Shown in pieces: positions 7,285-64,000 of a stretch of DNA of 64,000 nt. The notes beneath the pieces are model-generated. The model worked only from the letters and a program-made list of their open reading frames with translations. It searched no databases and had not been told where the DNA came from. Origin of the DNA: an uncultured Oscillospiraceae bacterium (GTDB lineage: Bacteria > Bacillota > Clostridia > Peptostreptococcales > Anaerovoracaceae); NCBI GenBank assembly GCA_964486295.1, contig CAZAMF010000011.1, forward strand, positions 494 to 64,493, written 5' to 3'. Both the position numbers and the translations under genes were made by a program. Each line of letters starts with the position of its first letter. Position 1 is the stretch's first letter.

Positions 7285-7815
7285 ATGAACAACGATTATC
7301 AGATCGGAACAACATTGATTACTGAAGAGCAGATCCGCGTGAGAGCTAAGGAGATCGGAGAACAGATTACAGCGGAATTCAGAGGTCAGGAAGTTCTTTT
7401 TATAGGAATTCTTAAAGGCGCCATATTATGGCTTGCAGATGTTGTCAAGAATGTGTCTTTGGATACAAAACTGGATTTTATGGCTGTGTCAAGCTATGGG
7501 GCGGAGACCAGGACTTCAGGAGTAGTCAGGATTGTAAAGGACCTCGACTCCAGCATTGAAGACAAAAATGTCATCATCGTTGAGGATATTGTCGATTCAG
7601 GAATCACCTTGAATTATTTAAAGGGATATTTGAACGGCAGAAAACCGAAAAGTCTGAAGATATGCACACTTCTGGATAAGCCGGCTGGCAGAAGAATAGA
7701 AATTCAGGCTGATTATGTCGGTTTTGAAGTGGAGGATAAATTTATTGTGGGTTATGGTCTTGACTATAACCAGAAATACAGAAATTTGCCATATATCAGC
7801 TATCTTGAAGAATGA
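7285..7815 (+). CDS. hpt: Hypoxanthine phosphoribosyltransferase
   Basis: 176 aa with PRPP-binding loop VIIVEDIVDSGIT and C-terminal FIVGYGLDY. Confidence 0.94.
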   Translation: MNNDYQIGTTLITEEQIRVRAKEIGEQITAEFRGQEVLFIGILKGAILWLADVVKNVSLDTKLDFMAVSSYGAETRTSGVVRIVKDLDSSIEDKNVIIVEDIVDSGITLNYLKGYLNGRKPKSLKICTLLDKPAGRRIEIQADYVGFEVEDKFIVGYGLDYNQKYRNLPYISYLEE

Positions 7816-7875
7816 AGGCGGAGCCGGTAAAATTTATCAATCATTAATATTAATTAATACAAAGGAGATATCGAA

Positions 7876-8448
7876 ATGGGTTACAAAGTACAAATAGGTT
7901 TATCAAACAAACACTTGCATCTTTCTTCAAAAGATGTGGAAACCCTGTTCGGCAAAGGATACAAGCTTACCCCGTCCAAGGATCTTGTTCAGCCGGGTCA
8001 GTTTGCTGCCGAAGAAAAAGTGGACATCGTAGGCCCTAAAGGCACGCTGAAGGGAATCAGAGTCCTGGGTCCTGAAAGACCTGAAACTCAGGTTGAGCTA
8101 GCCATGACTGATGCAAGAGCTATTGGAATCAAAGCTCCTGTCAGAGAATCAGGCAAGCTGGAAGGGACTCCGGGATGCACGATCGTTGGCCCGAACGGCA
8201 GTGTTGATATTGACCATGGCGTTATCGTAGCCATGCGCCATGTCCATCTTTCCCCAAGCGAAGCCATAGAAGCCGGGGTAAAGGACAAGGATTGTGTCAG
8301 CATCAGAGTTGGCGGTGAAAGGGGCCTGATATTCGAGAATGTATTGATCAGATCAGGAGAAGGCCACAAAAGAGAATGCCATCTGGACACCGATGAGGGG
8401 AACGCAGCAGGATGCGGCCCGGATGCAGAATGTGAAATATTAGTTTAG
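7876..8448 (+). CDS. pduL: Phosphate propanoyl/acetyl-transferase PduL
   Basis: 190 aa. Duplicated PduL motifs SNKHLHLS and AMRHVHLS. Good RBS. Confidence 0.85.
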   Translation: MGYKVQIGLSNKHLHLSSKDVETLFGKGYKLTPSKDLVQPGQFAAEEKVDIVGPKGTLKGIRVLGPERPETQVELAMTDARAIGIKAPVRESGKLEGTPGCTIVGPNGSVDIDHGVIVAMRHVHLSPSEAIEAGVKDKDCVSIRVGGERGLIFENVLIRSGEGHKRECHLDTDEGNAAGCGPDAECEILV

Positions 8449-11174: not shown

Positions 11175-11996
11175 ATGAGCAGAAACATCATCACCTTTTA
11201 TTTCAGCGGAACCGGAACGACCAGGAAGGTGGTTCAACAACTGGCGAAAAGCCTTGCCGACAAAATGGGCAAATCTGTGGAAATCAAAAATTTGGATTTT
11301 TCTCTGCCTGAAGTAAGAGAGAATACCCCGATCTTCAGTAAAGAAGATATCGTAATTGCAGGCGTGCCGGTTTATGCCGGAAGAGTCCCGAATGTTCTTT
11401 TGAAATATTTGAATACGATCCAAGGAAACGGGGCGCTTGCTGTTGCTGTCGTTCTATACGGCAACCGCAATTATGACGATGGGCTGATTGAATTGACTGA
11501 TATCCTTACTGAAAAAGGCCTCACAGTCATCGCGGCGGGCGCATTTATCGGTGAACATTCCTTTTCGAATATTCTTGCACAAGACCGCCCGGATGCAAGC
11601 GACATGGAAAAAGTTGAAGCGTTTGCAGGGGATATCTCTGCAAAAATGCTAAAAAATGAAGATTTTACAGCAATATCTGTGAAAGGTGAAAGGCCGTACA
11701 GAAAATATTACCAGCCTAGAGACCGATATGAAAATCCTTTTGACTTCAGATTGATCACCCCGAAGACAGATAAAGAACTTTGCACAGACTGCAAACATTG
11801 TGCGGAAATCTGCCCAATGGGTTCGATATCCTATGATGAACCATCTGTTTTGCAGGGAATATGCATTAAATGTTGTGCCTGTGTTAAAGATTGTCCGGCA
11901 GGAGCGAAATATTTTGATGACGAGAATTATAATAAACATAGACGGGAGCTGGAAGAAATTTATTTTGAACGCCGGGAACCGGAAATATTTGTTTGA
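11175..11996 (+). CDS. Flavodoxin-like domain fused to 2x[4Fe-4S] ferredoxin domain (EFR1-type)
   Basis: N-terminal FYFSGTGTTRKV flavodoxin-like loop. Two cluster motifs, CTDCKHCAEICP and CIKCCACVKDCP. Confidence 0.75.
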   Translation: MSRNIITFYFSGTGTTRKVVQQLAKSLADKMGKSVEIKNLDFSLPEVRENTPIFSKEDIVIAGVPVYAGRVPNVLLKYLNTIQGNGALAVAVVLYGNRNYDDGLIELTDILTEKGLTVIAAGAFIGEHSFSNILAQDRPDASDMEKVEAFAGDISAKMLKNEDFTAISVKGERPYRKYYQPRDRYENPFDFRLITPKTDKELCTDCKHCAEICPMGSISYDEPSVLQGICIKCCACVKDCPAGAKYFDDENYNKHRRELEEIYFERREPEIFV

Positions 11997-43124: not shown

Positions 43125-43199
43125 TCCAAGGTAGCTCAATGGTGGAGCACTCGGCTGTTAACCGATAGGCTGTGGGTTCGAGCCCCACCCTTGGAGCCA
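43125..43199 (+). tRNA. tRNA-Asn (GTT), CCA encoded
   Basis: Hand-folded cloverleaf. Acceptor TCCAAGG/CCTTGGA, D stem GCTC/GAGC, anticodon loop CTGTTAA, T arm GTGGG-TTCGAGC-CCCAC. Confidence 0.9.
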
Positions 43200-43203
43200 A
43201 TTT

Positions 43204-43291
43204 GCCGAAGTGGCGGAATTGGCAGACGCCCGGGACTTAAAATCCCGTGAGCTTTTAGCTCGTACCGGTTCGACCCCGGTCTTCGGCACCA
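43204..43291 (+). tRNA. tRNA-Leu (TAA), long variable arm, CCA encoded
   Basis: Acceptor GCCGAAG/CTTCGGC, anticodon stem CGGGA/TCCCG with loop CTTAAAA, T arm ACCGG-TTCGACC-CCGGT. Confidence 0.9.
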
Positions 43292-43325
43292 AGTTCTTTT
43301 TGGGGATGACCGGATAAATAAACGT

Positions 43326-43401
43326 CGCGGGGTAGAGCAGTTGGTAGCTCGTCGGGCTCATAACCCGGAGGCCATAGGTTCAAATCCTATCCCCGCAACC
43401 A
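43326..43401 (+). tRNA. Initiator tRNA-fMet (CAT), CCA encoded
   Basis: C1-A72 mismatch (CGCGGGG/CCCCGCA) and three consecutive G:C pairs closing the anticodon loop CTCATAA. Both are initiator hallmarks. Confidence 0.88.
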
Positions 43402-56999: not shown

Positions 57000-57158
57000 T
57001 TTACGACTCCTCCTTATTTTATGAGCTGCATAAGCCGATATTTATTTATATACACCTCTTTTGCCGCGAGTATTCCCTGTAAAATCAATTGCATCTTGTA
57101 TTATTGACAGCGATATGGTAGAGTCATAACTGAAAAGAAAATGATCAGAATTGAATAC

Positions 57159-57263
57159 AATTTATTGGTGTGCGATTTAAAAGCGCAGTTAAATAAAAGG
57201 GAATGAGGTGGAAATCCTCAGCAGTCCTGCTGCCGTTATAGCCGGAAGACCTGCCAGTAAATT
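57159..57263 (+). promoter_or_regulatory. Cobalamin riboswitch aptamer
   Basis: AAAAGGGAATGAGGTGGAAATCCTCAGCAGTCCTGCTGCCGT core and B12 box TAGCCGGAAGACCTGCC. P1 is AATTTATTGG/CCAGTAAATT. Confidence 0.85.
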
Positions 57264-57334
57264 TTTGTTTTGCGTCTTACAGGCTATAGGGCGTAAAGCG
57301 TTGAAATATTTAAAATTTGCACGAGGATAATTTT

Positions 57335-57368
57335 AAAGCATTCCGATTCAAAGCCGGAATGCTTTTTT
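57335..57368 (+). terminator. Riboswitch expression-platform terminator
   Basis: AAAGCATTCCG-attcaaagc-CGGAATGCTTT followed by TTTT, upstream of the RBS at about 57425. Confidence 0.8.
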
Positions 57369-57433
57369 ATTTAACAAGCCCAACAAGCACAGAAAGCGGC
57401 AACAACCGGATAGCCGGGGAAAGAATAAGGAAA

Positions 57434-58753
57434 ATGATTAGAAAATCTTTAATGAGCATTCTATTGATCATAACAGTATTATGTCCGATGACAAATTTTA
57501 ATGGCGTCTATGCGGCAACGGCAACGACCGATACGCAAACTCGCCAGATTCAAATGGTGATGGATGAAACGGCAAAGCTGCTTGTGGATACTGTAAAGGA
57601 TCCCGTGATATCGCAAGTCGGCGGAGAATGGACGATCCTGGGGCTGGCAAGGTCCGGATACTCCGTACCGGCGGGTTATTATGATCAATATGCACGGAAC
57701 GTTGAAAAGGAACTTGCAGAGAAAAGCGGTGTGCTGACAAGCGTAAAGTACACCGAATACTCCCGTTTGATCCTGGCCATGACGGCAATCGCCCGCGACG
57801 TCGATTCTGTTGGCGGGTATAATCTTCTGGAAAAACTGTCCGATTTTGATAATGTGAAAAAGCAGGGGGTCAATGGTCCGGCTTTCGCACTTCTGGCGCT
57901 GGACTCCCATGGCTATGAAATCCCTGCGGCTGCCGCCTCAAGGACCATTGCAAACGGCGGTACTGTGACCAGCAGAGAAGGGCTCATCGAATACCTTTTG
58001 AACAAAGGCCCGGTTGCCGGAGACGCGGACAGGACCGGCATCATGCTTCAGGCGCTGGCGAAATATAAGGACAGGAAGGAAGTAAAGGCTTTTTCCGAAA
58101 AAGCGTTCCAAATGATCGACGGACTTGAGAACAGCGACGGTAGTTTTCCTTACGGCGGTGTGGCGGCATCGGAATCCATTGCGCAGGTCATTGTTGCAAA
58201 AGCCATGTGGGGGATCGATTGCCGGGAAAACGTCGACGCGCTTCTGACATATCATATGAATGGTGGCGGCTTTGAGCATGTCAGGGGCCAGGGTTTCGAC
58301 CTGATGGCCACGGAGCAGGCCCTGTATGCACTGACAGCTTATGAAAGAAGCATAGCGGGTAAAACGGCCCTTTATGATATGACGGATGTGGTGATCTTTT
58401 CACCGGCAGAGATCAGGGTATCTCTAAATGGAAACTATATTGCCTTTGATCAGCCCCCAGTGATTGAGAACAGCAGGACGCTGGTACCAATGAGAGCTAT
58501 TTTTGAGGTGTTCGGGGCTGTAGTGACTTGGGATCAGGAAACGAAAACAGTTACTGGGACGCTGGACGGCAAAGTCGTTACGCTCACGGTCGGTGATAAA
58601 ACTTCATATGTCAATGGTGAAGCAGCGACATTGGATGTACCGGCAAAAATAATCAACGGACGGACCATGGTGCCGGTCAGATTTATTTCGGAAAGCCTTG
58701 ATGCGGATGTTCAATGGATCCAATCTCCGATGACGGTGGTGATAACAAAATGA
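57434..58753 (+). CDS. Secreted protein: alpha/alpha-toroid (prenyltransferase/squalene-cyclase-repeat-like) domain + copper-amine-oxidase-N1-like stalk domain
   Basis: Signal peptide MIRKSLMSILLIITVLCPMTNFNGVYA. Repeated helical hairpin region (GGEWTILGLARSG.., NGPAFALLALDS.., DRTGIMLQALA.., DGSFPYGG.., MATEQALYALTAY). C-terminal NSRTLVPMRAIFE..INGRTMVPVRFISE. Start reset from 57317, which would span the terminator. Confidence 0.7.
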   Translation: MIRKSLMSILLIITVLCPMTNFNGVYAATATTDTQTRQIQMVMDETAKLLVDTVKDPVISQVGGEWTILGLARSGYSVPAGYYDQYARNVEKELAEKSGVLTSVKYTEYSRLILAMTAIARDVDSVGGYNLLEKLSDFDNVKKQGVNGPAFALLALDSHGYEIPAAAASRTIANGGTVTSREGLIEYLLNKGPVAGDADRTGIMLQALAKYKDRKEVKAFSEKAFQMIDGLENSDGSFPYGGVAASESIAQVIVAKAMWGIDCRENVDALLTYHMNGGGFEHVRGQGFDLMATEQALYALTAYERSIAGKTALYDMTDVVIFSPAEIRVSLNGNYIAFDQPPVIENSRTLVPMRAIFEVFGAVVTWDQETKTVTGTLDGKVVTLTVGDKTSYVNGEAATLDVPAKIINGRTMVPVRFISESLDADVQWIQSPMTVVITK

Positions 58754-59448
58754 GAAACAAAGCAATAGATAAAAGAATTAGAAGGTACTTGATCGTTCTG
58801 TTTTCAATCTTTCTGATGTTTGCCTTTTTCGGCTGCGGAAATGCAGAGCAAAACACGGATGCTCCTGCCGGGGAAATCGCAGTGCAGGACAACCCGGAAC
58901 AAGCAGAAAAGGTAACCGGATCTGCAACAGCAACTCCGGAAGCGATTTCGGATGCAATTCCAGAAGCCGCACCCGAAAACATGCCCGAAAAATCCCAACC
59001 CTCAGAAACCTCCGAAAAGCAGCAGGATAAGCTGACCTGCACCGTTTCGATCACATGCGCCACCATTCTTGACAATATGGGCAACCTGGCCAAGGGAAAA
59101 GAAGAAGTGGTTCCCGCTGATGGAGTTATAATGTCGCCGAAAACAGTCGCTTTTGAACAGGGAGACACGGTGTTTGACGCCCTGGCCAGTGTTACGAAAG
59201 TGCAGAAAATACATATGGAGTTCACCACGACCCCGATCTATAAAAGCGCCTATATTGAAGGGATCAACAATATTTATGAGTTTGACTGCGGCGAACTTTC
59301 CGGATGGATGTACAAGGTGAACGGCGAATTCCCGAGCCGCGGATGCAGTGCTTACGAGCTTTCCGACGGAGACATGGTTGAATGGATCTACTCATGCAGT
59401 CTGGGCAGCGATATCGGCGGGAATTACCTGGAGCAAAAGGGAGAATAG
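58750..59448 (+). CDS. DUF4430 (transcobalamin C-terminal-domain-like) lipoprotein
   Basis: Lipobox FAFFGC, Pro/Glu/Ala-rich linker, then DUF4430 core ..GELSGWMYKVNGEFPSRGCSAYELSDGDMVEWIYS. ATGA overlap with the upstream gene. Confidence 0.75.
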   Translation: MRNKAIDKRIRRYLIVLFSIFLMFAFFGCGNAEQNTDAPAGEIAVQDNPEQAEKVTGSATATPEAISDAIPEAAPENMPEKSQPSETSEKQQDKLTCTVSITCATILDNMGNLAKGKEEVVPADGVIMSPKTVAFEQGDTVFDALASVTKVQKIHMEFTTTPIYKSAYIEGINNIYEFDCGELSGWMYKVNGEFPSRGCSAYELSDGDMVEWIYSCSLGSDIGGNYLEQKGE

Positions 59449-59449
59449 A

Positions 59450-60337
59450 ATGAAGGACGTATTCGGAACGTATCATCCGATCATAAATTTTATGTTTTTC
59501 TGTGCAGTACTGCTGTTCAGCATGTTTTTCATGCACCCGGTCCTGCTTTTGATTTCTCTGATTTCCGGATTTTCATACTATGTGTATCTTACAGGGAAGA
59601 AAGCCCTGAAATTCAGCCTGATATTTTTACTGCCCATGATGATCCTGATTTCATTGATCAATCCGCTGTTCAACCACAGAGGCGTTACGATCATCGGGTA
59701 TGTGATGGGCAATCCGATGACCCTGGAGTCGATCCTGTACGGGGCCGGCACCGGTCTGATGTTCGGCGCTGTCATTCTGTGGTTTTCATGCTACAACGTC
59801 ATCATGACCAGTGATAAATTCATCTACCTTTTCGGAAGGATCATACCGGCCATGTCCCTGATCCTGTCAATGGTTTTACGATTTGTGCCGAGATTCATGA
59901 CCCAGGTCAAAATCATTTCTGATTCCCAGAAATGCCTGGGGCGTGACGTCAGCGACGGCAGGCTGAAAGATCGGGTCGCCCATGGAATAAAAATACTTTC
60001 TGTGATGACCACCTGGGCGCTGGAGAATGCCATTGACACAGCGGATTCTATGAATTCCAGGGGCTATGGGCTCCCCGGGCGAACGGCATTTTCGAATTTC
60101 AGATTTGACACCAGGGATAAAACGATGAATGTTTTCATGCTGGGCTTGTTTGCGCTCATTATCGGAGGGACTGTCACGGGACAGAATACAGTGCAGTATT
60201 TTCCGTCCGTACGCTTTCCCGAGGTTACTGCAGCCGGCATCATCATATACGGAGCGTATTTTATACTTTGCTTTATGCCGTTGATTCTCGATTTGAAGGA
60301 GCAGGCCAGATGGCGACATTTACAATCAAAAATTTAA
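59450..60337 (+). CDS. ecfT: ECF transporter transmembrane (T) component, CbiQ/EcfT family
   Basis: 295 aa and polytopic. Paired coupling-helix-type motifs (ALENAIDTADSMNSRGY). Starts 2 nt after the previous stop. Confidence 0.75.
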   Translation: MKDVFGTYHPIINFMFFCAVLLFSMFFMHPVLLLISLISGFSYYVYLTGKKALKFSLIFLLPMMILISLINPLFNHRGVTIIGYVMGNPMTLESILYGAGTGLMFGAVILWFSCYNVIMTSDKFIYLFGRIIPAMSLILSMVLRFVPRFMTQVKIISDSQKCLGRDVSDGRLKDRVAHGIKILSVMTTWALENAIDTADSMNSRGYGLPGRTAFSNFRFDTRDKTMNVFMLGLFALIIGGTVTGQNTVQYFPSVRFPEVTAAGIIIYGAYFILCFMPLILDLKEQARWRHLQSKI

Positions 60338-62886
60338 CCTTTACATATCCGATGAAAAACACGCCTGTACTGAAAAACATCGATCTCGAAATCGGGTACG
60401 GACAGTTCATAACCATCTGCGGGCAATCGGGATCCGGAAAGACCACCCTTTTGCGAAATCTCAAATCCGCTCTGGCTCCCCATGGCAGCAGATCCGGAGA
60501 GATATTGTTTTACGGAAGGCAGCTGGACAGCGTGGATCGAAGGGAACAGTCTCAGCGGATCGGGTATGTGCTTCAGAATCCTGAAAATCAGATCGTAACT
60601 GATAAGGTGTGGCATGAACTGGCTTTCGGGCTGGAAAGCCTGGGCTACGACAAGAAAACCATCAGGCTGCGGGTTGCTGAAATGGCAAGCTTTTTCGGAA
60701 TCCAAACCTGGTTTATGAAAAACGTCAGCGACCTGTCCGGTGGGCAAAAGCAGATACTGAACCTTGCCGCAGTGATGGCCATGCAGCCGGATGTTCTGAT
60801 ACTGGACGAACCGACGTCGCAGTTGGATCCCATCGCGGCGGAAGCGTTCCTGGAAATGGTCCTGAAAATCAACAAAGAAATCGGGACAACGGTCATCATC
60901 AGCGAACACCGGCTTGAAGGGGTGTTTTCGATGGCGGACAGGGTCATCGTCATGGATGATGGAAGGATCGTTGCAAACGATACCCCTGAAAACACCGGAG
61001 CAATTCTGGCCGCACGGAAGCATAAAATGTTTATGGTGATGCCGGCGCCGCTGAAAATCTATGCGGAGCTTTATGAGCAGAATGTAAGAAGAGAGCTTCC
61101 ATGCCCTGTAACGGTCAGAGATGGACGCAACTGGCTGACAAAGTTATTTGAAAACGAAGCAATTAAAACCACCGCACTGGACGCCACGCCGGTATTAGAC
61201 CAAACCAGACAGGAACCCGTTATTTCCATGAAAGATGTGTGGTTCAAATATAATAAAAATGACAATGACGTGATCAAGGATCTGTCGCTGGAGATTTTCA
61301 GGGGAGAGATGTTTTGTGTTCTGGGAGGCAACGGCACAGGGAAGACCACCACGCTGAAATTGATCAGCGGTATTCAAAAAGCCTATCGGGGCAAAATGAG
61401 ACTCAAAGGCGTCGATATTGAAAAATATAAGAAGAATGAACTATTTTCCGGCATTATGGCCATGTTGCCGCAAAACCCTCAATCGGTCTTTGTGAAAAAC
61501 ACAGTTCGTCTCGATCTCATGGAAATGATGGAAGGCAGAAAAAACCCTGCCGGAATGATCTATACCGATGATGCTGTTGAAAAAATGGTATCGGAAATGG
61601 CCAAACTGGTGGAAATCGAGCATCTGCTGGATATGCATCCATATGACTTGTCCGGCGGGGAACAGCAAAGAGCAGCGCTTGCCAAGGTACTTCTTCTTGA
61701 ACCGGAAATCCTGCTGCTGGATGAACCCACCAAAGGCATGGACAACTATTTCAAGAAAAAACTGGCGGGTATCCTGAAAAAGCTTCTGGATAAAGGAGTG
61801 ACCGTAGTGGTTGTCTCGCATGACATTGAATTCTGCGGCAGCTACGGCGACCGGTGTGCGATGTTCTTTGACGGGAATATTGTTACGCAGGGGGTGCCAC
61901 GGACATTTTTCTCCGGAAACAGTTTTTATACGACTGCGGCAAACAGAATGTCCCGCCACATATTTGAAAATGCCGTGACCTCGGAAGACGTTGTGGCATT
62001 GATTAGGAAAAATCTCGATCTGCCCGAGCCTGTCGGGGAGGACAAGTCGGATGGAGGAGGCGATGTCGAAAATGACCGCCATGAGAAAACCGAAATCAAG
62101 AGCGGGAAAAGCGAATCCGTCAAACCGGCAAAGTCCGAAGCTGCAGCAAAGCCTGAGGCAACAAATCCTGTTCATGCTGCCGCAAAATTAAAAACAGGTA
62201 CCAAATTGGCGACTTTCATCCTGCTGGCGATGGTCCCCATCACATTGTATGCGGGGATGTTCTGGCTGAATGACAGAAAATATTATTTCATCAGTCTGCT
62301 GATCCTGGCCTATTCAATGATTCCTTTTTTTATGGTATTCGAGGGGAAGAAGCCTCGTGCGCGTGAAATAATAATTATCGCCGTGCTGATTGCAATCGCG
62401 GTGATCGGACGGGCTGCGTTCTTCATGGTCCCGCAATTCAAACCGGTGATTGCCATAGTGATCATCGCTGGGGCATGTCTGGGGAGTCAGGCAGGATTCA
62501 TGACCGGTGCCATGACCGCATTCGTTTCCAACTTTTTCTTCGGTCAGGGACCATGGACGCCATGGCAGATGTTCGCACTGGGTTTGATCGGGCTGTTATC
62601 TGGATATTTCATTGAAAAGGGACTTCTGAAAGAAAGAAGAAATTCTCTGATGGTGTTCGGCGCTTTGGCGACGGTTTTCATTTATGGGGGTCTTGTGGAT
62701 CTATGGACGATATTCGGGATGGGGACCGGAGAGGGCCTTCTGCAATGGGCGATCTCTGTCTACACGCTGGCGCTGCCTTTTAACCTGATCAATGCGGCTG
62801 CCACGGTGATTTTCCTCTATTTTCTGGCGAAGCCGATGATAGAGAAAATCGATCGGATCAAGATCAAATACGGTTTGGTATATTAA
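60310..62886 (+). CDS. Fusion of two ECF/ABC ATPase domains (EcfA-EcfA') with a C-terminal multi-TM S-component-like domain
   Basis: Walker A GQSGSGKTT and GGNGTGKTT, signatures LSGGQKQ and LSGGEQQ, Walker B LILDEPTS and LLLDEPTK. A charged linker follows, then about 7 TM from ~62185 with a QGPWTPWQM motif. Confidence 0.8.
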   Translation: MATFTIKNLTFTYPMKNTPVLKNIDLEIGYGQFITICGQSGSGKTTLLRNLKSALAPHGSRSGEILFYGRQLDSVDRREQSQRIGYVLQNPENQIVTDKVWHELAFGLESLGYDKKTIRLRVAEMASFFGIQTWFMKNVSDLSGGQKQILNLAAVMAMQPDVLILDEPTSQLDPIAAEAFLEMVLKINKEIGTTVIISEHRLEGVFSMADRVIVMDDGRIVANDTPENTGAILAARKHKMFMVMPAPLKIYAELYEQNVRRELPCPVTVRDGRNWLTKLFENEAIKTTALDATPVLDQTRQEPVISMKDVWFKYNKNDNDVIKDLSLEIFRGEMFCVLGGNGTGKTTTLKLISGIQKAYRGKMRLKGVDIEKYKKNELFSGIMAMLPQNPQSVFVKNTVRLDLMEMMEGRKNPAGMIYTDDAVEKMVSEMAKLVEIEHLLDMHPYDLSGGEQQRAALAKVLLLEPEILLLDEPTKGMDNYFKKKLAGILKKLLDKGVTVVVVSHDIEFCGSYGDRCAMFFDGNIVTQGVPRTFFSGNSFYTTAANRMSRHIFENAVTSEDVVALIRKNLDLPEPVGEDKSDGGGDVENDRHEKTEIKSGKSESVKPAKSEAAAKPEATNPVHAAAKLKTGTKLATFILLAMVPITLYAGMFWLNDRKYYFISLLILAYSMIPFFMVFEGKKPRAREIIIIAVLIAIAVIGRAAFFMVPQFKPVIAIVIIAGACLGSQAGFMTGAMTAFVSNFFFGQGPWTPWQMFALGLIGLLSGYFIEKGLLKERRNSLMVFGALATVFIYGGLVDLWTIFGMGTGEGLLQWAISVYTLALPFNLINAAATVIFLYFLAKPMIEKIDRIKIKYGLVY

Positions 62887-62922
62887 GCTCTTCGGGCTGA
62901 TATAGATTATGAATTGAATATA

Positions 62923-63100
62923 CTTCATGTTCCTGCAAGCTGTCCTATGAGAAACAGCTGCGGGCTAAGAGGGAAACAGGTTAAAATCCTGTGCGGTACC
63001 GCCGCTGTAAGCGAGGAATCCGGCCAATTTCCACTGGATATGCAATCCGGGAAGGAAGGCAACGGGTGATGATGCGCAAAGCCAGAAGACCTGCATGAAG
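62923..63100 (+). promoter_or_regulatory. Second cobalamin riboswitch aptamer
   Basis: P1 CTTCATG/CATGAAG. AAGAGGGAAACAGGTTAAAATCCTGTGCGGTACCGCCGCTGTAAGC core. B12 box AAGCCAGAAGACCTGCA. Confidence 0.88.
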
Positions 63101-63180
63101 AATGGGAGCCAGCCGGCGGGTTATCGGCATACACTCCTTTCAAACAACATAGCATGTTTGATTAAAAGCAGAAAAAACGG

Positions 63181-63246: not shown

Positions 63247-64000
63247 ATGAAAGCACGAAAAGGTTTTAAAAAAGGCATTGCATTTGTGCTGATGCTTGCC
63301 ATGATACTCGGCACATTTGGGGTAGCCGGATGGGGCGCCGGGCCGGTGTATGCTGCAGAAGCAAATGATATTACCGTAACCGTGGTCATAGAGAACAACA
63401 CATATCCGGTGGCCAGTGGAGCTGCCTGGGAAGGAACGCTGTTTACTTCTTCCGTTACGGTATCTGCCGGCGCTACGATGCTGGATGCAATTGAGCAGTC
63501 CCTAAACAATGAAGGCTATTTTGATACGTCTTTGATCGGCGGATCCTACATCAGCTCGATCAATGGGATCGCTGCCGGAGAAACAGGCGCCTATTCCGGA
63601 TGGCTGGGTGCTTTGAACGGGGTTTTGCCAAACGTAGGATTAGGATCTTCATATGTCAGTGACGGAGACACTGTCCGCCTGATGTATTCGCTGCCGTCGG
63701 GTTATTGCGCAGATCCTGCAGTGTCATGGGGAACGTCCAATGCCTCATCGACCGGATTTTCCTTCAGTGACGGGATATGGTCGTCGGAAAGTGACGGCTG
63801 GGGCGGATATGCGATAACGCTGACAGTGCCCGATCCTTTGGAACAAATCGTCGTCAACGAGGTTGCAGGGAGCACTTCGCCGGCATTGCGTATTTATAAA
63901 TATGACAGCAGTACTTATAGCATTGACCAGAGCAATATTTATCGCATCGGAGATGCTATTCCGCTGTCTGGACTCGGCACCACATTTGATTCTCTCTATG
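63247..64000 (+). CDS. Secreted DUF4430-domain protein, 3' end outside window
   Basis: Hand translation is open to the window end. GGAGGGG RBS and signal peptide MKARKGFKKGIAFVLMLAMILG..VYAA. DUF4430 core YSGWLGALNGVLPNVGLGSSYVSDGDTVRLMYS. Confidence 0.75.
   Translation, partial: MKARKGFKKGIAFVLMLAMILGTFGVAGWGAGPVYAAEANDITVTVVIENNTYPVASGAAWEGTLFTSSVTVSAGATMLDAIEQSLNNEGYFDTSLIGGSYISSINGIAAGETGAYSGWLGALNGVLPNVGLGSSYVSDGDTVRLMYSLPSGYCADPAVSWGTSNASSTGFSFSDGIWSSESDGWGGYAITLTVPDPLEQIVVNEVAGSTSPALRIYKYDSSTYSIDQSNIYRIGDAIPLSGLGTTFDSLY

Follow-up and report, generated by a model that had tools for sequence, protein, structure and literature searches.

A cobalamin riboswitch-controlled operon encoding a predicted ECF corrinoid importer and a putative pair of surface capture proteins

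What does a bacterium import with four genes placed behind a cobalamin riboswitch, and do the two surface proteins encoded there capture the cargo outside the cell? We addressed these questions in a 64,000-nucleotide stretch of DNA (the window), on whose plus strand all of the features described here lie. Rfam RF00174 identified a cobalamin riboswitch aptamer at positions 57149 to 57272 (score, 61.9 bits; gathering score, 31.5; E value, 6.7e-13). The aptamer is of a minimal form without the peripheral P6 extension, having 4 nt in place of 73 model positions, and this short form also lies directly 5' of the toroid gene (g1, see below) in the related loci L002 and L004. The expression platform contains an intrinsic terminator (57335 to 57371) with an 11-bp stem, a 9-nt loop, and U6. 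Its hairpin (57335 to 57365) folds with -15 kcal/mol (z, -3.8), and none of 200 shuffled sequences was equally stable; a simple terminator scan missed it because of the 9-nt loop. Four tightly packed genes (g1 to g4) follow. The g2 ATG overlaps the g1 stop codon (ATGA), g3 starts 1 nt past the g2 stop codon, and g3 and g4 overlap by 28 nt. The Rfam match, the RNA fold, and the open reading frames agree with the original prediction of a cobalamin riboswitch with its own terminator ahead of four genes.

We conclude that the locus is a genuine vitamin B12-controlled uptake operon of a Clostridia-type bacterium. As its best explanation, we consider it likely that the operon encodes a dedicated (group I, CbrTUV-type) ECF corrinoid importer, repressed by cobalamin, for which g1 and g2 capture the cargo outside the cell. 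Besides vitamin B12, the cargo probably includes cobinamide-type precursors. What the analysis established directly is that a riboswitch with its terminator precedes a four-gene operon, that g1 and g2 adopt the folds described below (as AF2 models), that the S domain is homologous to CbrT, and that module and riboswitch are conserved across Bacillota.

g1 (57434 to 58753) encodes a secreted surface protein of 439 aa. The public gene call (P0001, 429 aa) uses an internal start codon; when translation is taken from the ATG at 57434, the signal peptide is complete (about residues 1 to 26, ending GVYA/AT). Pfam analysis confirmed the anticipated Cu-amine-oxidase-N1-like stalk domain (Cu_amine_oxidN1, 129 bits) at residues 331 to 437 (58424 to 58744) and matched nothing in the N-terminal 330 residues. 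For this part an alpha/alpha toroid related to the alpha domain of B12 carriers had been proposed. The AF2 model of residues 27 to 319 (pLDDT, 96.3; pTM, 0.93) is indeed a toroid, spanning about residues 27 to 320, and the first three Foldseek matches in the PDB were transcobalamins, with the rat and human proteins on top (best match, 8ixu; E value, 4.4e-4). The proposed kinship holds less well. Farnesyltransferase (FTase) beta and squalene-hopene cyclase had E values within approximately 10-fold of those of transcobalamin and equal or better TM-scores (up to 0.64 for FTase beta). The family profile of the toroid matched squalene-hopene cyclase in the PDB (E value, 2.7e-10). Among 86 family members, SQHop_cyclase_C was found in 47 and Prenyltrans in 34, and Pfam Cobalamin_bind was matched by none. 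The models therefore suggest a link to transcobalamin at the fold level only; apart from their rank, B12 carriers are not favored. The anchor domain of the family varies (stalk, SLH, or LPXTG), as expected of a surface protein, and we counted this in favor of the capture reading.

g2 (58750 to 59448) encodes a lipoprotein of 232 aa. It has a lipobox (FFGC) at Cys29, a spacer of about 65 aa that is acidic and rich in Pro, Glu, and Ala, and a C-terminal DUF4430 domain of the transcobalamin-like beta-grasp (SLBB) type at residues 138 to 215 (59161 to 59394). A lipobox-like motif is present in 61 of 117 homologs. The original assignment, a lipoprotein with a transcobalamin-like DUF4430 domain, was supported both by Pfam (75.6 bits) and by structural comparison of the AF2 model (pLDDT, 87.4). 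The top 17 Foldseek matches in the PDB were all beta domains of transcobalamin (TC), intrinsic factor (IF), or haptocorrin; 3u7z came next, followed by a 100-fold gap in E value. Judged from this model, the domain resembles the beta domain of B12 carriers specifically. Among its best matches were 5no0 (apo) and 5np4 (with cyanocobalamin), which are structures of the isolated TC beta domain; the isolated human domain binds cobalamin.

The transporter is encoded by g3 and g4. g3 (59450 to 60337; 295 aa) was recognized as the expected EcfT/CbiQ-type T component (CbrV type) by Pfam CbiQ (29 bits; cutoff, 25), and its place between the DUF4430 and ATPase (AA) genes is kept in at least 64 loci. The 858-aa product of g4 (60310 to 62886) is an A-A'-S fusion, as the open reading frame, Pfam, and NCBIfam indicate. 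Its N-terminal part (60310 to 62034) comprises tandem CbrU-type ECF ATPases (two ABC_tran matches, 190 bits), and the translation contains canonical Walker A, signature, and Walker B-Glu motifs at both sites. The NCBIfam models ECF_ATPase_1 and ECF_ATPase_2 were passed, with scores of 355.7 for TIGR04520 (cutoff, 315) and 331.9 for TIGR04521 (cutoff, 330). A poorly conserved Lys/Glu/Ala/Gly-rich linker of about 75 aa (62035 to 62259) follows; in L002 it has diverged, and the domains on either side are conserved. The C-terminal part (62260 to 62886) is an S component of the CbrT family that probably carries two additional transmembrane (TM) helices at its N terminus. Residues 684 to 842 of g4 matched ECF-ribofla_trS (PF07155; 40.9 bits) and ECF_trnsprt (PF12822; 40.0 bits). 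When a profile of S-domain homologs was compared with the PDB, CbrT (6FNP chain A) was matched over residues 6 to 177 of 182 with an E value of 6.5e-14, closer by about eleven orders of magnitude than the next S component (4HZU_S; E value, 0.0055). This architecture of two ATPases, a charged linker, and an S-like domain had been foreseen, but with approximately seven TM segments in the S domain. By hydropathy, residues 630 to 844 contain at least five hydrophobic segments, some of which run together, and about 64 N-terminal positions of the S-domain profile were left uncovered by the CbrT alignment, so that the number is probably about eight instead (six plus the two extra N-terminal helices).

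In order to determine how widely the arrangement is conserved, 79 species-level loci were surveyed. The order toroid, DUF4430, T, AA, S was found in at least 64 of them, and a cobalamin riboswitch lies 5' of the module in at least 40 of these 64 (same strand, upstream; 38 by our own model plus two of eight "negatives" rechecked with Rfam). Across genomes, toroid, DUF4430, and ECF genes thus do occur together behind B12 riboswitches. In about one-third of the loci with the module, no riboswitch was detected, which we counted against corrinoid import. Sampling anchored on the S component gave DUF4430 directly 5' of T-AA-S, with a toroid gene nearby, at three of three loci, one of which adjoins btuFCD-like and cbi genes. 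The toroid and DUF4430 domains are fused in one polypeptide, in both orders, in 36/79 loci, including the L002 ortholog of the gene downstream of the present operon. Such Rosetta-stone fusions are a classic sign of physically cooperating domains.

These data suggest the following mechanism. Cobalamin would turn the operon off by transcription termination, and B12 scarcity would permit read-through. The toroid protein g1, associated with the wall, and the lipoprotein g2, tethered to the membrane, would then capture the corrinoid extracellularly, most likely sandwiched between them as between the alpha and beta domains of transcobalamin, and hand it to the CbrT-like S domain. Powered by the two ATPase domains, which would hydrolyze ATP, this domain would topple against the T component g3 and release the corrinoid inside. 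Because a long flexible linker joins S covalently to A-A', the S domain would be held 1:1 with its ATPases and could neither escape to other ECF modules nor be shared by them. In the classical definition, ECF transporters use no extracytoplasmic binding proteins, a point that we counted against this reading.

Parts of this arrangement have counterparts in known systems. In transcobalamin, intrinsic factor, and haptocorrin, a toroid and a beta-grasp (SLBB) domain sandwich B12, the match being specific for g2 and of fold only for g1. The eukaryotic domains belong to one soluble chain that is endocytosed via receptors; those described here are on two chains, both anchored to the cell next to an ABC-type importer. 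BtuG and BtuH, reportedly studied by Wexler (2018) and Putnam (2022), are Bacteroides surface lipoproteins that capture B12. They are functional analogs only: riboswitch-controlled surface proteins passing B12 to a transporter, but of an unrelated beta-propeller fold, Gram-negative, and handing over to the TonB-dependent BtuB. CbrTUV was reportedly predicted by Rodionov and colleagues in 2009 to be a dedicated ECF transporter for B12 or its precursors, with genes said to be under B12-riboswitch control. It is a standard annotation and, as CbrUVT, serves as a signature of B12 uptake (PMC6593275, PMC8123684). g3 and g4 fit this dedicated module (CbrU, A-A'; CbrV, T; CbrT, S), although the scheme has neither toroid/DUF4430 partners nor a CbrU-CbrT fusion. 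ECF-CbrT of Lactobacillus delbrueckii (PDB 6FNP), characterized biochemically and structurally (Santos et al. 2018, PMC5997447), imports cobalamin and cobinamide (PMC5997447, PMC6593275). It too combines a T component with two ATPases, and its S component is homologous over nearly its whole length. However, CbrT, a group II S component of 182 aa, has an ECF module in common with seven other S components and no extracytoplasmic partners, whereas the S domain here has approximately 60 extra N-terminal residues and its own covalently attached A-A', and two surface proteins are encoded alongside it.

The closest counterpart is the "ECF-like" system lsa1836-1840 of Latilactobacillus sakei, for which deletion and overexpression pointed to a role in the uptake of heme (Verplaetse et al., bioRxiv 10.1101/864751). 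By its published description, rather than by sequence, it has the same five functions in the same order (alpha-like secreted, beta-like secreted, T, fused A-A', and S), and its authors also propose an extracellular alpha/beta pair feeding an ECF importer. It differs in that S is separate, in that heme is the substrate linked by experiment, and in that the Cu_amine_oxidN1 domain is a feature of g1; the accessible text of the preprint does not mention a riboswitch. An association of toroid, SLBB, and CbiO/CbiQ was predicted in 2007 to serve B12 scavenging (PMC1796856). That contextual analysis independently drew the inference favored here, and we counted it in favor. Gram-positive genomes commonly have this layout, which had already been predicted and partly studied, and the operon is thus a good example rather than a discovery. 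The original claim that such systems are uncharacterized was only partly right, given the 2007 prediction, the L. sakei mutants, and the work on ECF-CbrT.

The L. sakei results raise the alternative that heme or some other non-corrin tetrapyrrole is the cargo and that the transcobalamin-like pair scavenges heme. According to that preprint, intracellular heme fell in the deletion mutant and rose upon overexpression, heme was docked into the modeled alpha/beta pair, and the S component is stated to have no cobalamin-binding residues. These are the sole genetic data on a co-linear operon, and we counted them against corrinoid import. We nevertheless regard heme import here as improbable, in view of the cobalamin riboswitches at this and at least 40 of 64 related modules, the homology of the S domain to a component of a B12 transporter, and the related locus that lies within a group of btuFCD-like and cbi genes; the flanks of the operon contain no regulator or gene related to heme. 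A less radical departure, unlikely but deserving some weight, is that g1 and g2 form no clamp. The lipoprotein alone would bind the corrinoid, in keeping with the isolated TC beta domain among its best structural matches, and the toroid, whose likeness to TC is generic for the fold and whose gene lies elsewhere in the cluster at some S-anchored loci, would serve in wall attachment or as a scaffold, bind another corrinoid or precursor, or dock the outer fused protein described below. The almost invariant adjacency of toroid and DUF4430, and their repeated occurrence in one chain, as in B12-binding transcobalamin, argue for the clamp.

The cyclase and prenyltransferase matches of the toroid family would also fit a surface enzyme, akin to prenyltransferases or class II terpene cyclases, whose substrate is a lipid or isoprenoid and which is connected with B12 uptake only incidentally. 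We consider this very improbable. The toroid is a single secreted domain of approximately 300 aa without the second barrel of cyclases or a prenyltransferase alpha subunit, it is always encoded together with DUF4430 and an ECF importer, usually behind a B12 riboswitch, and its putative DxDD-like stretch reads D-A-D-R in g1, with only one Asp invariant in the family. A frameshift or assembly artifact joining separate cbrU and cbrT genes in g4 would accord with the 120 closest S-domain homologs among the matches listed, all of which are stand-alone proteins of approximately 240 aa, but it can practically be dismissed. An 867-aa AA-S fusion occupies the equivalent operon position in L002 and L003, two independent assemblies of one relative (g1 about 70% identical). 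Furthermore, AA and S are fused in 28 to 31 of the 79 genome loci and in 119 of the 150 best clusters (50% identity), where S invariably occupies the C terminus and the linker has 7 to 201 aa (median, 63). The fusion has at least three origins, one of them an independent event in the present lineage, and is no peculiarity of this window.

A second, full-length cobalamin riboswitch (RF00174, 112.7 bits) begins 24 nt past the g4 stop codon (62910 to 63112) and is arranged likewise 3' of the fusion gene in L002. It is followed by the 5' part of a gene for a large surface protein (63247 to 64000; DUF4430, 38.3 bits) that runs off the window. The encoded protein is the fused counterpart of g1 and g2. 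The L002 ortholog, of 1144 aa, contains two DUF4430 and three SLH domains in the order DUF4430, divergent toroid, DUF4430, SLH. Anchored by SLH domains, such a fused protein would probably form an outer capture layer feeding the same route. The middle region of the ortholog matched the g1 toroid family by hhalign with a probability of 92.7% (E value, 4e-7).

The four genes of the operon lie on the plus strand behind a cobalamin riboswitch at 57149-57272, which matched the Rfam model RF00174 with 61.9 bits (gathering score, 31.5; E = 6.7e-13). Alignment to RF00174 revealed an intact core and B12 box, with high posterior probability across the core. Because 73 model positions of the peripheral P6 extension are reduced to four nucleotides, this is a minimal-type cobalamin riboswitch. 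An 11-bp terminator hairpin followed by U6 was identified by RNA folding at 57335-57365 (plus strand), 63 nt 3' of the aptamer (-15 kcal/mol; z = -3.8). A consensus terminator scan overlooked this hairpin because its loop is 9 nt, and direct folding recovered it. The hairpin and U6 tract are predicted to form an expression platform able to switch expression. The ORFs that follow are g1 (57434-58753), encoding a secreted toroid protein; g2 (58750-59448), encoding a DUF4430 lipoprotein; g3 (59450-60337), encoding a T component; and g4 (60310-62886), encoding tandem ECF ATPases (A-A') fused to a substrate component (S). Stops and starts overlap or abut throughout, with an ATGA overlap between g1 and g2 and a 28-nt overlap between g3 and g4. 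The original prediction of a riboswitch with its own terminator ahead of four coupled genes was borne out, and the domains it assigned to g1 to g4 agree with Pfam and NCBIfam searches. The upstream flanking genes have no relation to B12 (a DEAD-box helicase, Cys/Met PLP enzymes, a Y-family polymerase, a flavin reductase-like protein and a 3-dmu-9_3-mt family protein). Three tRNA genes are clustered at 43125-43398 of the window.

Pfam analysis of g3 gave a CbiQ match that is barely over the cut-off (29 bits versus 25), and the position of this gene is kept in at least 64 related loci. The g4 product contains two ABC_tran stretches and passes both NCBIfam ECF-ATPase equivalogs (TIGR04520, 355.7 versus 315; TIGR04521, 331.9 versus 330). 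Its S component was recognized by PF07155 (40.9 bits versus 26.7) and PF12822 (40.0 versus 30.7). A profile of the C-terminal domain, built from 56 homologues, matched exactly two solved proteins: chain A of 6FNP (E = 6.5e-14, aligned over residues 6-177 of the 182 in CbrT), a structure that we take to be substrate free, and the distant S component 4HZU_S (E = 0.0055). These matches identify the g4 S domain as a CbrT homologue over nearly the full length of CbrT. 6FNP is ECF-CbrT of Lactobacillus delbrueckii, a vitamin B12 ECF transporter that has been characterized biochemically and structurally (PMC5997447). Compared with CbrT, the S clade of g4 carries approximately 60 extra N-terminal residues comprising two hydrophobic segments; the two additional helices would keep the S N terminus cytoplasmic, as a fusion behind cytoplasmic ATPases requires. 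As a unit, g3 and g4 represent a dedicated CbrTUV transporter, as annotated in comparative genomics (PMC6593275; PMC8123684), in which CbrU (A-A') and CbrT (S) are fused and CbrV is the T component. The S-component-like nature of the g4 C terminus, as originally proposed, is therefore upheld by both Pfam families and by 6FNP.

Textbook ECF importers, unlike canonical ABC importers, have no extracytoplasmic substrate-binding protein. Two extracytoplasmic candidate binding proteins, g1 and g2, are encoded in this ECF operon. DUF4430 (PF14478) was detected in g2 at 75.6 bits (gathering score, 23.8), and the domain was modeled with a pLDDT of 87.4. The 17 best PDB matches of this model were exclusively beta domains of transcobalamin (TC), intrinsic factor (IF) or haptocorrin (HC), the best being 5no0 (E = 5.6e-6; TM-score, 0.76 normalized to target). 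These were followed by 3u7z, the single bacterial DUF4430 protein with a solved structure, and then, after a hundred-fold gap in E value, by generic beta-grasp proteins at E values of at least 2e-2. The predicted g2 beta-grasp resembles the beta domains of B12 carriers rather than generic beta-grasp proteins, and the assignment of g2 as a transcobalamin-type beta domain can be retained. g2 also carries a lipobox (FFGC, Cys29) together with a spacer of approximately 65 residues that is acidic in composition, and a lipobox-like motif is present in 61 of 117 g2 homologues.

The C terminus of g1 is a Cu_amine_oxidN1 domain (129 bits in Pfam). For the N-terminal domain (293 residues of the mature protein), Pfam returned no match even at E <= 10. 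Residues conserved without exception in the g1 family are, in mature-domain numbering, W39, Y59, K78, E81, Y82, R84, Q117, D130, D172, T174, E220, Q224 and H255. An AlphaFold2 model based on an alignment of g1 and 85 homologues, from 706 found at E <= 1e-3, was all-helical (pLDDT, 96.3; pTM, 0.93). Foldseek searches of the PDB with this model placed rat and human TC on top (8ixu, E = 4.4e-4). Within approximately 10-fold of this score were farnesyltransferase beta, squalene-hopene cyclases, IF and complement TED, some with higher TM-scores. Since toroids that are not carriers score this close to TC, the modeling establishes an alpha/alpha-toroid fold for g1 but not a specific kinship with B12 carriers. 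The proposal of a B12-carrier-type barrel therefore stands as to the fold and first-ranked TC, whereas other toroids are roughly equal matches and none of the 86 aligned sequences matched Cobalamin_bind (PF01122). Sequence-only searches of PDB chains returned only the amine-oxidase N domain for g1 and nothing for g2; the g1 family profile found no TC, IF or HC among PDB sequences, and a profile of DUF4430 homologues retrieved low-complexity noise only. Structure prediction was thus needed to reveal the relationship to TC. A signal peptide, together with the exchange of Cu_amine_oxidN1 for SLH or LPXTG anchors within the family, fits a wall-associated protein. The public gene call for g1 (P0001, 429 aa) begins 10 codons too late and so clips the signal peptide; translation from the ATG at 57434, which has AAGGA ahead of it, yields a normal n-region (MIRKSLMS...).

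A toroid-anchored scan was carried out with one genome per species. This yielded 79 loci from Clostridia, Paenibacillus, Peptococcaceae, Tissierellia and others, and purpose-built HMMs for each part were mapped onto all of their ORFs. Identity reached 53% at most, so a close representative of the source organism is absent from the scan. The order toroid, DUF4430, T, A-A', S was found in at least 64 of the 79 loci, and contig ends cut most of the others. All eight loci first checked with Rfam contained cobalamin riboswitches. A covariance model built from these matches detected 69 riboswitches across the set and placed one upstream of the T gene, on the same strand, in 38 of 64 modules. Rfam recovered two more in a recheck of eight modules negative with this model, which is therefore less sensitive than Rfam, and the riboswitch counts are lower bounds. 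Hence, at least 40 of the 64 modules lie behind a riboswitch, and the anticipated co-occurrence of toroid, DUF4430 and ECF genes behind B12 riboswitches is confirmed. Sampling anchored on the S component gave the same picture in three of three loci. Toroid and DUF4430 occur in one polypeptide in 36 of the 79 loci, in either order and often repeated; fusions of this Rosetta-stone kind would be predicted were g1 and g2, as separate proteins, to cooperate.

All of the 120 nearest homologues listed for the S domain stand alone, at approximately 240 aa, which raised the possibility that the fusion in g4 is an artefact. This explanation is very improbable and was rejected: an 867-aa A-A'-S protein is present in two independent assemblies of a relative whose g1 is approximately 70% identical, with a diverged linker and conserved domains relative to g4, and a search of 1.84 billion cluster representatives with the 858-aa query found A-A' and S together in 119 of the best 150 clusters, S always being C-terminal. 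Linkers in the fused clusters span 7-201 residues (median, 63); that of g4 has 75 aa. In the genome loci, the two parts are fused in 28-31 cases and separate in 36. A seemingly stand-alone S gene at one related locus (L001), 96% identical, was considered as counter-evidence and found to be uninformative. The 5' end of its metagenomic contig (3-50) translates to a sequencing-adapter-derived peptide, SLHDALPI, followed by a stop, beyond which linker-like sequence continues in the reading frame of the S domain; given this contaminated start, the 226-aa stand-alone call (P0245) is misleading. In a neighbor-joining tree of S domains, computed without bootstrap support, the fused state requires at least three changes, and the pair formed by the window and a related locus (L002) is nested among unfused relatives, so this lineage would have fused independently of the main fused clade. 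If it indeed had at least three independent origins, the tether, which prevails in the family today, would offer a natural experiment on whether the ECF cycle depends on S being released or exchanged. No description of an A-A'-S fusion was found in the literature searched, although absence there is no proof.

Two further readings were ranked low. The toroid might be an enzyme of the prenyltransferase or class II terpene cyclase type, given that repeat-level Pfam matches are common among g1 homologues (SQHop_cyclase_C in 47 and Prenyltrans in 34 of the 86 aligned sequences). Such enzymes rely on a Zn site with an alpha subunit or on a DxDD acid between two barrels. g1 is secreted, has one barrel only and shows D-A-D-R at the tentative DxDD position; we regard an enzyme as unlikely. 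A heme importer is suggested by Lactobacillus sakei. Verplaetse et al. (bioRxiv 10.1101/864751) studied an operon of that species, Lsa1836-1840, that is colinear with the g1-to-g4 system (S, AA', T, beta-like, alpha-like), built a model of an alpha/beta heterodimer with hand-over to the S component proposed, and found that deletion and overexpression of the operon affect heme content. The experimental link there is heme; for the window, we give heme import a low probability. Earlier still, Burroughs et al. (2007) described a transcobalamin-like SLBB clade in bacteria, fused to alpha/alpha toroids on either side; where B12 synthesis is lacking, its genes share operons with relatives of CbiO and CbiQ (PMC1796856). 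In view of this prediction, the L. sakei work and the characterized ECF-CbrT, the idea of a split transcobalamin feeding an ECF importer is biologically sound but not new, and the original interpretation is partly supported.

The analysis established a cobalamin riboswitch with its terminator, the components of an ECF importer, the homology to CbrT, the modeled folds and a conserved gene linkage; for B12 import by this module, we propose the following model. Upon B12 limitation the operon would be transcribed, and wall-associated g1 and membrane-tethered g2, with its long spacer, would trap a corrinoid between toroid and beta-grasp as TC does and then pass it on to the S domain related to CbrT. 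Hydrolysis of ATP by A-A', relayed via the T component, would topple S and release the corrinoid inside, while the tether would fix stoichiometry and block S exchange. It is conceivable, if rather doubtful, that this ECF importer depends on its extracytoplasmic binding proteins, with a ligand-induced heterodimer of the g1-g2 type docking on the two extra helices of the ATPase-tethered S. Were the pair to bind B12 and hand it over, this would provide the first ECF importer using binding proteins, a Gram-positive equivalent of Bacteroides BtuG/BtuB capture and a way to test whether transcobalamin is of bacterial origin, as has been proposed. Widespread in Clostridia, Paenibacillus and Peptococcaceae, the module brings together an S component from a proven B12 family and bacterial equivalents of the two halves of animal B12 carriers. 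B12 competition among Gram-positive gut and soil anaerobes is experimentally poorly defined, and the identification of B12 transporters in gut genomes has been called an open problem (PMC6593275). The window provides no new principle; it is a clean, compact example with split and fused versions adjoining, of moderate-to-low interest as a discovery and moderate interest as an experimental entry point.

The fused version lies immediately downstream. A full-length cobalamin riboswitch (RF00174, 112.7 bits) occupies 62910-63112 on the plus strand, 24 nt after the g4 stop, and is followed by the 5' part of a large surface-protein ORF that starts at 63247 on the same strand, encodes a signal peptide and then DUF4430, and runs off the window at 64000. 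Its L002 orthologue is a 1144-aa protein with the architecture DUF4430, divergent toroid, DUF4430 and three SLH domains; profile comparison matched the middle region to the g1 toroid family (probability, 92.7%; E = 4e-7). Split and fused candidate "bacterial transcobalamins" are thus neighbors, the riboswitches ahead of them differ in type, and the 63247 gene is possibly cotranscribed with the operon and gated a second time. The SLH-anchored protein may act as an outer capture tier, for which wall-spanning heme relays and BtuG/BtuB follow an analogous logic. The short riboswitch before the ECF operon and the full-length one before the fused gene are found in both the window and L002 (5606-5729 versus 11379-11585), and in the two closest loci (L002, 5606-5729; L004, 8586-8708) the toroid gene is likewise preceded by the short type. 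Selectivity among cobalamins can vary in short (class II-like) cobalamin riboswitches, so the two units might, by analogy, respond to different corrinoids.

Several related loci showed additional features. A single strand holds three to five cobalamin riboswitches within a few kilobases at L057 (1875-7996), L053 (3685-18897), L063 (255-2514) and L042 (3596-8440), some with tandem copies before a single gene (for example, 7767-7957 and 8243-8440 in L042). At L085 (12051-18873), one of the S-anchored loci, the module is directly followed by a btuFCD-type ABC importer (Peripla_BP_2, FecCD and ABC_tran) and then by cobalamin biosynthesis genes (CbiA, CbiC and TP_methylase); a single cluster would thus supply this organism with two distinct B12 importers and part of the synthesis pathway. 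DUF4430 and T share one stop-to-stop ORF at L078 (10564-12351), possibly through an additional fusion or a frameshift. L064 (643-8824) carries two complete modules that diverge in orientation, one of which has an S-S match within one ORF.
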